Positions 12,235 through 46,714 of a stretch of 64,000 nt of DNA are shown piece after piece. The position numbers and the translations under genes were made by a program. The stretch comes from Candidatus Omnitrophota bacterium (GTDB lineage Bacteria > Omnitrophota > Gorgyraeia > Zapsychrales > Zapsychraceae), in assembly GCA_016931055.1 (NCBI GenBank), contig JAFGFL010000055.1, positions 5,773 through 69,772 of the forward strand. Reading direction: 5' to 3'. The stretch's first letter is position 1. Each line of letters opens with the position of its first letter. The notes under the pieces were generated by a model. It was not told where the DNA came from, searched no databases, and was given only the letters and a program-made list of their open reading frames with translations.

Positions 12235-12876
12235 TTACGCCCGATATCCCTGAAAGGGTATATTTTGCTGATCCTTCTGGAGATCCTCTTTCTTAATCGG
12301 TTCCTTTTCCCTTCCTTGATCAGGAAGGATCTTCCCAACAAAGATAGCAACCTCAATAGGTTCATCCAGGCCGATCGTGCTTTGGACCTTTCTCTTAACC
12401 AATTCCTGCACACGCGACGTTACCTCCGGGATGCTGCCTTCCGCACGCAAGATAAGTTTGATTCTGATCAGCAATCCCTTTTTGGAAGCGGATATCTTGG
12501 ATTTGACCTCCCTGACTTCAGCGATTCGGCCGATCACGCGTTTCGTCAAATCCTCGATCGCGCCCAAGGAAACACTGACGCGCCCCGCAGGGTTATCAAA
12601 CGCGATTGTTTTTTCCGCACGGGAACTTCCCGTGAAGGCCCGGTAAAAAACATAGTTTAAGAACAATAACGCACAGGCACCAATGGCGAAGGTCATTCGC
12701 AACGCTTCGTCAGAGTACATAACCGTGACCATATTGATAAGGGGCTGGACATCGATATAGTTAAGGACAAGCAATAAGACAAAGCAGCTGATAAACATGA
12801 TCAAGGTCACATAAAACAAAATGGCTATTCTTGTTAAAAATTTCACATTGCCTCCCGTCATTTTTCGTTCCGCCAT
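12235..12876 (-). CDS. Alkaline-shock-response membrane anchor protein (AmaP-like)
   Basis: Two N-terminal TM helices followed by an Asp23-like soluble region (VSVSLGAIEDLTKRV...). Lies immediately downstream of an Asp23 gene. Confidence 0.6.
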   Translation of the reverse strand: MAERKMTGGNVKFLTRIAILFYVTLIMFISCFVLLLVLNYIDVQPLINMVTVMYSDEALRMTFAIGACALLFLNYVFYRAFTGSSRAEKTIAFDNPAGRVSVSLGAIEDLTKRVIGRIAEVREVKSKISASKKGLLIRIKLILRAEGSIPEVTSRVQELVKRKVQSTIGLDEPIEVAIFVGKILPDQGREKEPIKKEDLQKDQQNIPFQGYRA

Positions 12877-12911
12877 GATTCATGGCGGAACGAGGCTCGC
12901 ACCCCATCAAG

Positions 12912-13274
12912 TTATGGCGTGGGTGCGGCCTTTTCTATGCCCTGCACATTCACATTTATATCCCTCAAATTGATATCCAACGTCTTATCAATTGCCGACT
13001 TAATGGTCTCTTGCACCTGCCTGGCCGCGTCTGGAATGTTCATCCCGTAACGGACAAGGATTTGCACCTCAAGGGTCACCTCATGATTATCGTCAACCCT
13101 GATATCAATCCCAGGGAATTCTTTCTGCCCAAAGATCCCGGCCAATTTATTGCCCAGATTTTCCTGTATTAAATGGACCCCCTCAACTTCATCGAGAGCC
13201 GATGCGATAATCTCCGCAAAGACTTTTTTATGCACTTGCACCGAACCAAGATCGATTTTATCTTCTCTCCTCAT
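12912..13274 (-). CDS. Asp23/Gls24 family envelope stress protein
   Basis: 120 aa. LGSVQVHKKVFAEIIASALDEVEGV...V.V......V.L.V.I.V.YG..IP.....VQ..I is the Asp23 family pattern. Confidence 0.85.
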   Translation of the reverse strand: MRREDKIDLGSVQVHKKVFAEIIASALDEVEGVHLIQENLGNKLAGIFGQKEFPGIDIRVDDNHEVTLEVQILVRYGMNIPDAARQVQETIKSAIDKTLDINLRDINVNVQGIEKAAPTP

Positions 13275-31665: not shown

Positions 31666-33014
31666 CGTCTCCCCTTTATGTGGCCAGATTTCATGAACCC
31701 GTCATAATGCCGCATGACTAGATGAGATTCAATCTGCTTCATCGTATCCAGCATCACACCGACCGTAATCAAAACTCCCGTTCCGCCAAAAAAGGAGGCC
31801 ACCAAATAAGGGACTCTGAACGAAGCCATAATCGCATCCGGCATGACGGCAATACACATAATGAATAAAGCCCCCGCCAATGTGATGCGCGTCATAACGA
31901 AATCAAGATAATCCGCTGTCTGCGTGCCCGGACGGACACCCGGGACAAATCCGCCGTGCTTTTTCATGTTTTCAGCAACATCAATGGGATTGAAAACAAT
32001 CGCCGTATAAAAATAACAGAAGAAAACGATTAAAAGTCCGTAAAATGTGTAATACAAAAAATGGCCCCTGCTGATAACGCTTGCCATTGACTGGAACCCC
32101 TCATGCGGGATAAAACTGGCCAGGGTTGCCGGGAATAAAATAATCGACTGGGCAAAGATGATCGCGATAACACCCGAAGTATCCACCTTAAGCGGAATAT
32201 AGGTATTTTGCCCGCCGTAGACTTTTCTTCCAACAATACGCCGGGCATATTGCACAGGGATTTTTCGTTGCGCTTGGGTGATCAAAGTGATGGCAATAAC
32301 CACCCCAACCAAAAAGGCAAGCATGATCAACAACGTTAACGGCTGAAGTTGGCTCCCTCCCCCCGCTGAAGGCGACATCAATTGCACAAGGTTCTGCGCC
32401 GCTGATGGAGCCGCGGAAATGATACCAGCCGTAATAATCAACGATATCCCGTTACCAATCCCTTTTTCCTGGATCTGCTCCCCCAACCACATTAAAAGCA
32501 ACGTTCCGCTGGAAAGGGTCAAAACAGTCACAATACGAAATGCCCAGCCAGGATTATTCACGACCTGCAACCCCCCGAAAACCACTCCTGATCTGTCTTC
32601 AAGCCAAAGAGCGATAAAAAACGACTGCACAACCGCCAAAACCAATGTTCCATAACGTGTATACTGGTTGATTTTATGATAGCCGGCCTGTCCTTCCTTC
32701 GCCAATTTCTCAAGGGCCGGGATGACAGCGGTTAACAGCTGCAAAATGATCGAGCTTGAGATATAAGGCATGATCCCAAGAGCAAACACGGTCGCTTTCT
32801 CAAGAGCCCCGCCGGAAAACATATTCATGACGCTGAATATGCTTCCGCTTGCCGCTGAGGTCATCTTCTGAAAATATTCACCTAAAACCGCGCCGTTGAC
32901 GCCTGGCGTCGGAATATAACATCCAACTCGATACGCGGCAATCATAGCCAACGTAAACAATATCTTCTTCTTCAGTTCAGGGATCTTAAAGCAATTGACA
33001 AACGCACTTAACAT
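31662..33014 (-). CDS. secY: Preprotein translocase subunit SecY
   Basis: 450 aa, 10 TM pattern. LGIMPYISSSII.QLL and canonical spc-operon position. Confidence 0.97.
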   Translation of the reverse strand: MLSAFVNCFKIPELKKKILFTLAMIAAYRVGCYIPTPGVNGAVLGEYFQKMTSAASGSIFSVMNMFSGGALEKATVFALGIMPYISSSIILQLLTAVIPALEKLAKEGQAGYHKINQYTRYGTLVLAVVQSFFIALWLEDRSGVVFGGLQVVNNPGWAFRIVTVLTLSSGTLLLMWLGEQIQEKGIGNGISLIITAGIISAAPSAAQNLVQLMSPSAGGGSQLQPLTLLIMLAFLVGVVIAITLITQAQRKIPVQYARRIVGRKVYGGQNTYIPLKVDTSGVIAIIFAQSIILFPATLASFIPHEGFQSMASVISRGHFLYYTFYGLLIVFFCYFYTAIVFNPIDVAENMKKHGGFVPGVRPGTQTADYLDFVMTRITLAGALFIMCIAVMPDAIMASFRVPYLVASFFGGTGVLITVGVMLDTMKQIESHLVMRHYDGFMKSGHIKGRR

Positions 33015-33502
33015 TATTTCTTAAAAGGCCCTTTTTCTATATTCGTATTTTCAACAACAGGTTCGATCTTACCGCCGGCTTTAATCACTTTGTCCTGGGC
33101 TGTTTTCGAAATACTCCCTGCCTGAATGGTCAGGGATTTTTTGATTTCCCCGTCACCCAAAATCTTAAAAGGCTTATTTAAACTTCTGATAAGCCCTTGC
33201 TGTTTTAAAAACTCCGCATTGATGATAGTGCCATTCTCGAATTTATTAAGTCGCTCCAAAGCGACAACTTGGTTAAGAATGGGCCGCTTACTGTGAAAGC
33301 CAACTTTAGGGAGCCGCCGGATCAAAGGCATTTGGCCGCCTTCGGATGAAATGACAACAGCGCGCCCCGTACTGTGGGCTTTTTGGCCATTCTCGCCACG
33401 ACCACTTGTCTTTCCGCGGCCCGATCCCTTGCCCCGGCCGACAATTCTTTTGTGTTTTCTTGAACCCTTCGGTGATTGTAACTCGTGCAAATGCATGATC
33501 AA
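33014..33502 (-). CDS. rplO: 50S ribosomal protein L15
   Basis: L.P..GS.K..KR.GRG.GSG.GKTSGRG..GQ. Confidence 0.95.
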   Translation of the reverse strand: MIMHLHELQSPKGSRKHKRIVGRGKGSGRGKTSGRGENGQKAHSTGRAVVISSEGGQMPLIRRLPKVGFHSKRPILNQVVALERLNKFENGTIINAEFLKQQGLIRSLNKPFKILGDGEIKKSLTIQAGSISKTAQDKVIKAGGKIEPVVENTNIEKGPFKK

Positions 33503-33511
33503 TTCCTGTTT

Positions 33512-34162
33512 TTATCCGTTGACCAATCCGTCTGTTTTAAGACGGGTAAGCCCATCGATTGTTGCTTTGACGACATTAATGGGATTATTCGATCTGTGAC
33601 ACTTTGTCAAAATGTTTCGAATCCCAGCCCCATCACAGACGGCCCGCACCGGCCCTGCCGCGATAACGCCGGTTCCTTCTGAAGCCGGTTTAAGCAGGAC
33701 CCGAGATCCGCTGCACCTGCCGATAATCTCATGAGGAATCGTCGTTCCTTTCAGGGAAATCTTAATCATATTTTTCTTTGCTGCCGCCATGGCCTTTCGG
33801 ATGGCAATGGATACTTCCGCGGCTTTTTCTAAACTATAGCCGACATTCCCCTTGGTATCACCGACAACCACCAAAGCGCTGAAGGATAGTTTCTTCCCCC
33901 CTTTTGTGACTTTGGTAATACGGTTGATCGAGACGACCTTTTCAACAGTTTCCGCTCCCTCCGCCCCTGCCGCCAGCACCTCTTTATCCAAAATCTCTTC
34001 TTCCGCGGATTTCTCGTGAACGCCACTGCCCCGTTTACCAACGCCCTTTTCGCCGACTATCTTGTCTTCGGGAATTTTCTCCCTTTTAAAATCAGGTTTT
34101 CGGAACTTTTGTTCTTTCGGTCTTTTTATATTGTCAGATGGCTCTTTGTCTCTTTTATTCAT
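33512..34162 (-). CDS. rpsE: 30S ribosomal protein S5 with ~60-aa basic/acidic N-terminal extension
   Basis: The core starts at [34 protein letters not shown]. It is preceded by a low-complexity K/E/R-rich leader absent from typical S5. Confidence 0.93.
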
Positions 34163-34544: not shown

Positions 34545-35084
34545 TTATTTTGCGACTGATTTTCCAACTTTCCTTCGGACATGCTCTCCGACATACCGGA
34601 TGCCTTTCCCCTTATACGGTTCAACCGGCTTTAAATCACGTATTTTGGCCGCAGTCTGCCCGACCAGAACACTGTCCGGCCCTTCAACGGTAATCGAGGT
34701 TTGATTCGGGACGATGGCCTTAATACCATCCGGCACAAGAAATTCAACCGGATGGCTAAACCCTAGGTTGAATAAAATCTTATTCCCCTGGAGTTGGGCT
34801 CGAAACCCAATTCCCTGGATTTCCAGTTCTTTTTTGTGGCCATTGGTCACGCCAGCAATCATATTGACCAGACGCGAGCGGATGGTCCCATGATTGGCGC
34901 GATCCTGTTTAGCATCCGAACTACGCGTAACCGTTAATTTATCTTCTGTAAACTCAACATTGATACCATCAGGGATATTAAGGTTCAATTTGCCCTTAGG
35001 CCCTTCCAGAGCGACTGTACCCGCCGCTACGTTGACCTTGACCCCTTTTGGGACATCAACTGGATTTTTACCTGTTCTTGACAT
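34545..35084 (-). CDS. rplF: 50S ribosomal protein L6
   Basis: MSRTGKNPV.VP.GV.V......V...GPKG.L; PEPYKGKGIRY..E.V..K.GK. Confidence 0.96.
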   Translation of the reverse strand: MSRTGKNPVDVPKGVKVNVAAGTVALEGPKGKLNLNIPDGINVEFTEDKLTVTRSSDAKQDRANHGTIRSRLVNMIAGVTNGHKKELEIQGIGFRAQLQGNKILFNLGFSHPVEFLVPDGIKAIVPNQTSITVEGPDSVLVGQTAAKIRDLKPVEPYKGKGIRYVGEHVRRKVGKSVAK

Positions 35085-35245
35085 AATTCAAAATTCCATG
35101 ACTTTATCGCAACGTGCTTGTCTTTTCTTCCTCGACGCCCTTAATGGCGAGCCCTTCGGCAGGCTTAGGGTTCCTCTCGGCCGAATTGTCCCGAGCTTGC
35201 CGAGGGACAAGCCCTGCACCAGAAGGTGCAGGGCGCGACGAATCA
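35085..35245 (-). other. Structured G+C-rich non-coding spacer between rpsH and rplF (candidate cis-regulatory RNA, sRNA or inserted repeat)
   Basis: 161 nt with no ATG-initiated ORF. The transcript strand has a perfect hairpin GCCCUGCACC-UUCU-GGUGCAGGGC (35211-35234), an adjacent 7-bp hairpin UUGUCCC/GGGACAA (35186-35210), and alternative CUCGG(C)/(G)CCGAG pairings. By hand count, 72 of the 110 nt in 35131-35240 are G/C. Confidence 0.5.
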
Positions 35246-35641
35246 CTACCAAACGTAACACAAAACTTCCCCGCCAATTTTCATCTTACGGGCCTCACGG
35301 TCACTGACAATGCCTTTTGAAGTTGAGATAACAGCTGTTCCCAACCCGTTGATGACGCGCGGGACTTTATTGTTTTGCGCATATATCCGCAATCCTGGGC
35401 GCGATATGCGTTTAAGACCGATTATAACCGGCTTTTTGTTCTCATATTTCAAGTACACTTTATAGGTGCCCTGAACACTGTCCTTCATCAGCCGATAATC
35501 TTCTATATATCCATCAGCCTTGAAAATCTCAAGGATCCTCTCCATCAACTTTGACGCCGGGATATCAACCGTCTCTTTATTAGCTTGTATGCCGTTCCGG
35601 ATAATCGTTAACAAATTACTGATTGGATCATTTAATGACAT
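35246..35641 (-). CDS. rpsH: 30S ribosomal protein S8
   Basis: MSLNDPISNLLT.IRNG......V..P.SK......I....GYI. Confidence 0.96.
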   Translation of the reverse strand: MSLNDPISNLLTIIRNGIQANKETVDIPASKLMERILEIFKADGYIEDYRLMKDSVQGTYKVYLKYENKKPVIIGLKRISRPGLRIYAQNNKVPRVINGLGTAVISTSKGIVSDREARKMKIGGEVLCYVW

Positions 35642-38785: not shown

Positions 38786-38845
38786 GAAAAATTCTCCCGT
38801 CATTTTTTCTGTCACTTTTCAACCCTATTGAAAAATGACGAGGCT

Positions 38846-38871
38846 CGCCCCGAACCACACGGTTCGGGGCG
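38846..38871 (-). other. Perfect 11-bp G+C-rich hairpin directly downstream of the rplV stop codon
   Basis: Transcript strand CGCCCCGAACC-GUGU-GGUUCGGGGCG, starting 3 nt after the UAA at 38877-38875. No immediate U-tract. Confidence 0.6.
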
Positions 38872-38874
38872 GCC

Positions 38875-46342: not shown

Positions 46343-46714
46343 TTACCCTTCTCTTTTCGCTCCGTACTTTGAGCGCGATTTTTTTCTTTTTCCAACTCCA
46401 GCCGTATCCAAGGTCCCGCGGACAATATGATAACGGACGCCAGGCAGGTCCTTCACGCGACCCCCTCGCACCAAAACAATCGAGTGCTCCTGTAGGTTGT
46501 GCCCTTCGCCAGGGATGTAAGACGTTACCTCAAATTTATTCGATAACCGGACCCTGGCGATCTTGCGTAACGCCGAATTCGGCTTCTTCGGCGTCATCGT
46601 TTTCACCTGAAGGCAAACTCCTCTGCGAAACGGAGAGTTCAACAAAGCCGGTGATTTACTCTTCTTTTTTTTCTGCGTCCGGCTCTTTCTGATTAACTGT
46701 TGTATCGTCGGCAT
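46343..46714 (-). CDS. rpsL: 30S ribosomal protein S12
   Basis: [44 protein letters not shown]. Confidence 0.98.

Follow-up and report, generated by a model that had tools for sequence, protein, structure and literature searches.

Gene organization of the rpsH-rplF junction

The window analyzed here is the whole 64,000-nt stretch of Candidatus Omnitrophota DNA, and the genes of its ribosomal protein and RNA polymerase cluster are all carried on the minus strand. In the spc operon of this cluster, the gene for ribosomal protein S8 (rpsH) ends with the residues CYVW and the stop codon UAG (35246-35248), with an in-frame UGA next to it, and is separated from the gene for L6 (rplF) by a non-coding spacer of 161 nt (Table 1). 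When all gaps were ranked, this spacer proved to be the largest in the cluster, as the first-pass annotation of this DNA had claimed; those of tuf-rpsJ (~142 nt), rplL-rpoB (119 nt), rplV-rpsC (~89 nt), and rpsG-fusA (~79 nt) follow. The same annotation had counted by hand 72 G or C residues in the 110 nt from 35131 to 35240, which is exact. The resulting G+C content of 65% is reached by 0.09% of 110-nt intervals, compared with 43% for rpsH, 48% for rplF, and 47% for the 64-kb window as a whole.

Table 1. Features of the rpsH-rplF junction and of hairpin-bearing intergenic sites in the window
Feature	Position	Strand	Remarks
rpsH (S8) CDS	35246-35641	-	100% protein identity to S8 of a 'Candidatus Omnitrophica' MAG; Pfam PF00410
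rplF (L6) CDS	34545-35084	-	canonical MSRTGKNPV start
rpsH-rplF spacer, 161 nt, non-coding	35085-35245	-	whole insertion plus rplF ribosome-binding region
P1 5' strand, UUCGUCGC (UUCGACGC in relatives)	35235-35242	-	3-11 nt past the stop codon
HP1, GCCCUGCACC-UUCU-GGUGCAGGGC	35211-35234	-	perfect 10-bp G+C-rich hairpin, 4-nt loop
HP2, window version	35151-35208	-	long irregular G+C-rich hairpin
P1 3' strand, GCGUCGAG (CGCGUCGAA in relatives)	35131-35138	-	7 of 8 positions pair with 35235-35242
3' region common with relatives (..GUUGCGAUAAAGUCAUGGAAUUUUGAAUU)	35085-35130	-	69-76% identity vs 54-60% at synonymous sites
Extended -10-like TTGCGATAAAGT	35101-35112	-	inside the 3' region
rplF Shine-Dalgarno-like UGGAAU	35093-35098	-	inside the 3' region
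rplV-rpsC spacer, 89 nt, two very stable hairpins	38786-38874	-	MFE -45.4 kcal/mol, z = -7.5
Sister hairpin, CGCCCCGAACC-GUGU-GGUUCGGGGCG, directly after the rplV stop	38846-38871	-	HP1 stem pattern
Third intergenic hairpin, perfect 13 bp (12865-12893), between co-directional genes	12850-12915	-	

Distribution of the spacer in related genomes

The species representatives nearest by S8 belong to Omnitrophota and share 69-72% identity with the protein of the window. Across 29 genomes, the rpsH-rplF spacer ranges from -7 to 80 nt (3, 6, 7, 36, 40, and 80 nt in the six Omnitrophota species representatives, and -7 to 76 nt in 23 genomes of other phyla), which makes the 161-nt spacer an outlier. Closer relatives, of which there are hundreds with an S8 identity of 75-90%, were sampled as contigs encoding an S8 84-90% identical to that of the window, and the spacer was read from each of them. 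Long forms were found in L031/L032 (147 nt), L160 (143 nt), and L159 (136 nt), as well as a form of 68 nt in L033-L035, which corresponds to the element with its middle deleted. Non-carriers with a spacer of 6-10 nt are represented by L036/L037, L158, L161, L162, L163, L164/L165, L166, and L167, and include the two closest relatives by S8, L166 (89%) and L167 (90%). Altogether, at least eight lineages that are as close to the window as the carriers, or closer, have the short spacer. Their junction has the form UAG-GUGAAUU-AUG, in which the stop codon and the next bases make up the Shine-Dalgarno sequence of L6.

The long forms are homologous to the spacer of the window (nhmmer E = 1e-30 to 1e-42), and the alignments show that the 5' end, the two strands of a long-range stem (P1), and the 3' region are common to them. 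Comparison of filled and empty sites places the insertion right behind the stop codon, with no target-site duplication. Indels and shuffled modules distinguish the carrier lineages from each other. In a tree of S8 plus L6 and in a tree of S8 from all loci, carriers and non-carriers are interleaved and no clean carrier clade is formed, implying either one gain followed by several precise losses or an exchange of alleles between co-occurring populations; carriers and non-carriers do occur together in one sample series, for instance ZHAN22-2. The insertion is confined to part of the membership of a single small Omnitrophota group. That it might be an att-like scar, formed by duplication of the 3' end of rpsH and later decay, was rejected, as the two sequences are not similar (p = 0.2-0.75).

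A separate observation comes from the distant Omnitrophota genome L001 (2897-2976), whose 80-nt rpsH-rplF spacer has a 10-bp hairpin of its own, 9 nt past the stop codon and within a 6-bp outer stem. Its similarity to the element of the window is not significant (p = 0.3-0.8) and the two are probably independent, so that hairpins close to the S8 stop seem to have originated repeatedly at this junction.

Coding potential and comparison with known RNA families

It had been proposed in the first-pass annotation that a 57-codon frame with a GTG or TTG start might encode a small protein. Two such frames are open in the window, and neither is preceded by a Shine-Dalgarno sequence in the DNA. In every relative they are broken by stop codons, and on this ground the small protein was rejected: all six frames of L031, L159, and L160 are interrupted, on both strands, and the indels between the spacers are not multiples of three. 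A processed or independent small RNA, also proposed there, would suit a G+C-rich and structured sequence, but no promoter-terminator pair brackets such a transcript and no Rfam family matches it. In view of these observations, we consider it extremely unlikely that the spacer is a gene for a small protein or a small RNA.

The Rfam comparison recommended in the first-pass annotation yielded no family match for the spacer or for two of its homologues. At gathering thresholds, Rfam 15 detected only three tRNAs in the whole window, and the spacer and its homologues from L159 and L031, when scanned permissively, remained at chance level (13-16 bits, compared with thresholds of 48-50). A literature search for a stem-loop between rpsH and rplF found no paper. 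In addition, Tandem Repeats Finder detected no tandem repeats, and the ~20-nt 'units' ending in GCGNCGAA were recognized by eye only.

Mimicry of a ribosomal protein binding site, suggested earlier for S8 or L6, is not supported, and the spacer is not like a known ribosomal protein control switch. Within it, the stretch CCGAGAGGAACC (35169-35180) bears what we take to be a faint likeness to the sarcin-ricin loop, a resemblance that does not recur at the homologous position in relatives. The S8 site in the E. coli mRNA overlaps the rplE start and mimics helix 21 of 16S rRNA, and S8 controls the spc operon by translational coupling of rpsN-rplO; S8 sites possess a conserved internal bulge with two adenosines beside a conserved G-C pair (PMC3616713). 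The element shares with this S8-interacting RNA its operon and its nature as a structured mRNA segment adjoining a ribosomal protein gene; however, it lies after rpsH, lacks the conserved bulge motif, and is missing from close relatives. No conserved AAGU/AUAC-type core was found among the carriers in alignment A5. The stop-proximal hairpin HP1 is a perfect helix, the E. coli site is located elsewhere, and Rfam gave nothing, all of which speaks against an S8 autoregulatory mimic. Both the S8 mimic and the L6 (sarcin-ricin-loop) mimic were rejected on alignment A5, in which neither has a conserved motif at homologous positions.

Secondary structure of the spacer

The spacer of the window has a minimum free energy of -64.9 kcal/mol (z = -3.0), and one of 200 dinucleotide shuffles was as stable. 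Folding better than that of shuffled sequences is limited to the spacers of the window and L159 (z of about -3), as those of L031, L160, and L033 have z values of about +0.2; this uneven stability was counted against the reading that we prefer, a REP-like palindromic insertion with a selected stem-loop.

The perfect 10-bp hairpin with a 4-nt loop that had been noticed from the sequence was borne out, its start being 11 nt past the S8 stop instead of about 12, and the 7-bp pairing UUGUCCC/GGGACAA at 35186-35210 is likewise present. Three helices (HP1, P1, and HP2) were tested on alignment A5, in which HP1 occupies columns 12-35. For HP1, 95% of the cells are paired and five of the ten pairs have changed on both sides, such as C-G to A-U (window vs L159) and U-A to C-G via U-G and C-A, at a sequence identity that is neutral (46-58% between L159 and L031/L160). 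Displacing the partners by 1-3 columns lowers the share of paired cells in HP1, P1, and HP2 together from 88% to 26-40%. HP1 is the only sub-element whose structure is conserved through compensatory changes, and its structural conservation is real.

With its stable G+C-rich stem and 4-nt loop right after a coding sequence, HP1 recalls an intrinsic terminator or attenuator. It differs from these in lacking a U-run and in its mid-operon position among genes whose products are required in equal amounts, and a canonical intrinsic terminator was rejected on the missing U-run and on a terminator scan that did not flag HP1. An extended version of the idea is that HP1, as an attenuator or terminator, acts with an internal promoter, represented by the extended -10 element TTGCGATAAAGT, and splits the spc operon in two units. 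The strength of the hairpin and its place right after the stop codon would agree with it, as would the conservation of TTGCGATAAAGT in the window, L031, L160, and L033. On the other side, HP1 is followed by CUUGUCCC or CUUGCUCACC and not by a U-tract, a promoter scan found no two-hexamer promoter in the spacer, L159 has no -10-like element, and a split would presumably be of no obvious benefit to an operon for ribosomal proteins that are needed in equal amounts. This arrangement appears very unlikely to us.

The long-range stem P1 (UUCGACGC with GCGUCGAA in relatives) is present in each of the four long forms, where 7-8 of the eight tested positions pair; L159 has a ninth adjacent pair, and in L160 the stem extends to 11 of 12 positions as read off the alignment. 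No compensatory change was found in P1 among the four long forms of alignment A5. Its 3' strand has other potential partners, as it may form a small local hairpin (35137-35148) or pair with upstream CGNCG units. RNAalifold favors HP3 (CGACG..CGUCG), a rival hairpin that shares this strand, and also proposes a weak pairing between the first 9 nt and the Shine-Dalgarno region of L6. Enforcing P1 in the window gives -60.1 kcal/mol, i.e., +4.8 relative to the minimum of -64.9. HP2 in relatives is a helix of 7-8 bp (CUUGCUCA/UGAGCAAG) common to L031, L159, and L160; the HP2 of the window occupies the same place, cannot be aligned with it, breaks the pairs of the relatives' helix, and has an identity at neutral level.

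Sequence constraint in the spacer

As a neutral yardstick, we used the third-position synonymous identity of the flanking genes (0.54-0.60). The spacer of the window is 59-63% identical to those of relatives over its whole length, compared with 54-60% at synonymous sites, and its middle section is conserved no better than synonymous sites. What stands out in the window is the 5' 12 nt (75-83% identity), HP1 as a structure, and the last 46 nt. Absence from close relatives or lack of conservation in them, which the first-pass annotation had named as evidence against a regulatory RNA, is largely what is observed, as at least eight close lineages have 6-10 nt at the junction and the middle of the window's spacer is neutral.

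Such near-neutral identity is in keeping with another explanation, according to which the spacer is a functionless remnant, that is, a tolerated insertion that decays by drift and deletion and whose hairpin persists as a DNA palindrome. The indels and the shuffling of modules between lineages, the 68-nt deletion form, and what appear to be several complete losses fit this picture; moreover, G-U and A-C intermediates are equally frequent in HP1, so that no strand preference is visible. However, pairing in HP1 has been kept through five double changes despite drift at the neutral level, the 3' region is modestly above neutral, and a 40-nt block is strongly constrained in three lineages. We regard a mere remnant as unlikely.

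Identity in this 40-nt block amounts to 93-97% between L159 and L031/L160, compared with 54-57% at their synonymous sites (P of about 1e-7 to 4e-9). The window lacks it, being identical at 22 of the 40 positions, which is the neutral level. Recent recombination was rejected as the cause of its conservation, given that the flanking 130 nt have a synonymous identity of 0.56-0.73, far below 0.95. A conserved 37-nt block was not found in viral contigs. The 40-nt block points to a putative sequence-specific function in L159, L031, and L160 that would not be explained by a hairpin with a stabilizing role alone, and in this respect it counts against the reading that we prefer.

This constraint, which in three lineages greatly exceeds that at synonymous sites, is the main argument for a cis-regulatory RNA that would control rplF and the downstream genes, either through a trans factor (S8, L6, or another) or as a switch between P1 and HP3. 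In the switch version, the 5' strand would pair with the CGCGUCGAA unit (P1) in one state, and CGACG with CGCGUCG (HP3) in the other, the 5' strand being sensitive to the terminating ribosome. Both alternatives are supported as folds, the 5' strand of P1 lies 3-11 nt past the stop codon and within the footprint of a terminating ribosome, and conservation of the flanks, both 5' and 3', extends to every carrier. A precedent for regulation exists in E. coli, where S8 controls the spc operon via translational coupling (PMC3616713).

Against this reading, the closest relatives and many members of the clade do not have the element, the block is unconserved in the window, P1 has no compensatory changes, HP1 has no internal loop with bulged A residues, the defining feature of S8 sites, the sarcin-ricin-like stretch CCGAGAGGAACC is not at a homologous site in relatives, and no Rfam match was found. 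That mutually exclusive folds exist, as proposed in the first-pass annotation, is borne out by RNAalifold and by the folds of the window, but a regulatory consequence is not supported by opening-energy models: masking the first 13 nt past the stop codon leaves the ribosome-binding site of rplF no more accessible thermodynamically, and unmasking of the rplF Shine-Dalgarno sequence by a ribosome on the S8 stop was rejected, as footprint masking did not consistently lower the modelled opening cost.

On balance, a cis-regulatory role seems quite improbable. The same low expectation applies to its most specific form, an undescribed spc cis-regulatory RNA of narrow range in Omnitrophota that senses ribosomes terminating on rpsH or binds a ribosomal protein. 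If such a role were true, the RNA would consist of a stop-proximal 5' strand, HP1, and three CGNCG units that pair exclusively (P1 vs HP3), with the 40-nt block, so well preserved in lineages whose synonymous sites are saturated, as the binding or switching core and the version in the window as a diverged one, and it would set the synthesis of L6 to L15 and SecY after the loss of the ancestral S8-L6 coupling.

Related hairpins and similarity to REP elements

Repeat search, BLAST (the BLASTN comparison suggested in the first-pass annotation), and nhmmer found no second copy of the whole element in the 64-kb window, and no other copies at unrelated sites were found either there or in a further ~1.07 Mb of loci. 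Four perfect G+C-rich hairpins of at least 8 bp are present in the window, one of which is a tRNA stem. A sister hairpin located directly after the rplV stop is identical to HP1 at eight of ten stem positions and resembles the L159 version of HP1 still more closely; the pattern GCCCNGNACC-N4-GGTNCNGGGC has two matches in the window (HP1 and the sister hairpin), where 0.17 would be expected. The rplV-rpsC spacer in which the latter resides comprises a 15-bp G+C-rich hairpin (loop GUGU) followed by a 13-bp A/U-rich hairpin, and is itself an insertion because the relative L164 has 11 nt there. Two modules, GCGAGCCTCGT and AAAAATGACGGGAG, occur exactly and in the same order in this spacer and at the site of the third hairpin near 12.8 kb, with an estimated joint chance of ~0.03, a value that allows for the large number of 14-mers shared by chance within the window. 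This suggests that the rplV-rpsC and 12.8-kb sites may belong to a mosaic intergenic repeat family, which could also be a source of Shine-Dalgarno sequences. By analogy, the combination of hairpins and short modules in a mosaic between co-directional genes hints at a REP/BIME-type appearance.

An exact-pattern scan of metagenomes for HP1 returned more than 120 loci, which are uninformative on the element because only the hairpin, and not the flanks, is shared with them. Among other observations in these data, intergenic arrays of 2-4 tandem G+C-rich hairpins occur in L044 (2060-2200), L126 (9170-9290), L154 (2470-2600), L065, L147, L053, and L040, with the recurring stems CCCTGAACC.., GCCCTGCACC.., and CCCTCCCCC.. 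on metagenome contigs of 42-60% G+C; L044 is Thermodesulfobacteriota/Syntrophorhabdaceae-like according to its CstA protein. These arrays look BIME-like, and their flanks are unrelated to the rpsH-rplF spacer.

Repetitive extragenic palindromes (REP, and BIME as their composite form) of enterobacteria are often intercistronic. REP hairpins of E. coli reportedly stabilize the upstream mRNA and, when located within ~15 nt of the stop codon, are said to lower the expression of the upstream gene. Like these elements, the sequences studied here are short G+C-rich imperfect palindromes between co-transcribed genes near a stop codon, as seen for both HP1 and the sister hairpin; they are present or absent between close relatives, they occur in a mosaic with other short modules, and a sister hairpin occupies another intergenic site of the same genome. 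Differences are also evident. High copy number is the hallmark of REP and MITE families, whereas two hairpins of the pattern were seen within 64 kb; the element is 136-161 nt long and combines a long-range stem with conservation at the 3' side, in contrast to a simple 35-nt unit; and the same stem sequence in other phyla has unrelated flanks.

MITEs resemble the element in being non-coding and structured, in their size of ~140-160 nt, and in their presence or absence in relatives with clean empty sites. In contrast, the inverted repeat P1 is internal, has 8-9 bp, and runs from 3 nt inside the 5' end to ~45 nt before the 3' end, and the element has no target-site duplication. A MITE was rejected on the lack of terminal repeats, of a target-site duplication, and of a second copy in the window plus ~1.07 Mb of loci. 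Of the REP/MITE-like insertion put forward in the first-pass annotation, the insertion itself fits best, being patchy and palindromic, while a classical high-copy repeat or MITE is not supported, in view of the single copy in 64 kb and the absence of terminal inverted repeats with a target-site duplication. Both points also count against the REP-like reading that we prefer.

Proposed origin and role of the insertion

The reading that we prefer, and to which we give about an even chance, is that the spacer represents a lineage-specific REP-like palindromic insertion in the spc mRNA, which has a stop-proximal stem-loop kept by selection and supplies L6 with a Shine-Dalgarno sequence of its own. 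The insertion would have entered the 6-10-nt rpsH-rplF junction in one Omnitrophota sub-clade; some lineages have retained it, one has lost its middle, and many close relatives do not have it. The spc-operon mRNA would include the element, whose one consistently maintained feature is HP1, 11 nt past the S8 stop and nested in the weaker long-range stem P1, and whose 3' end would give L6 a separate Shine-Dalgarno sequence. In this way, the ancestral tight coupling between S8 and L6, with the Shine-Dalgarno sequence over the stop codon, may have given way to independent initiation preceded by a structured RNA between the two cistrons.

The insertion, its patchy occurrence, the conserved structure of HP1, and the lack of both coding potential and a match to known RNA families are observations; that HP1 works in the RNA, as a stem-loop between cistrons, is what we infer. 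HP1 may serve as a barrier to 3'-exonucleases or as a processing site and, since it lies within the footprint of the terminating ribosome, it could modulate termination at the S8 stop, an effect reportedly seen with REP elements near stop codons in E. coli.

If the reading as a REP-like insertion is true, the locus offers a clean natural case in which a palindromic insertion has broken a translational coupling, that of S8 and L6, which ranks among the best conserved in bacteria. Such a tolerated insertion, with long retention in some lineages and precise removal in others, would bear on how ribosomal protein operons absorb insertions. It would also be a warning for RNA-motif hunting, as a regulator does not necessarily follow from structural conservation and a raised G+C content against a low-G+C background. 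No long-standing question is opened by this reading, and a new RNA of ribosomal protein operons in an uncultivated phylum would be of more interest to specialists.

Other features of the ribosomal protein cluster

Some further observations were made in the same cluster. No rpmD (L30) gene is present between rpsE and rplO in the window (33014-34162), where the gap is 9 nt, and the same holds for L164 (5827-7132); this appears to be a lineage without L30 at its usual place. The rpsE product (S5; 33512-34162) has 216 aa, including a Lys/Glu-rich N-terminal extension of ~50-60 residues, and its counterparts in relatives have 223-268 aa. In addition, the canonical start of rpsL (46714) precedes the rpoC stop (46656) by 59 nt, so that rpsL and rpoC overlap at 46656-46714 of the window in different reading frames and rpoBC runs straight into the str operon.
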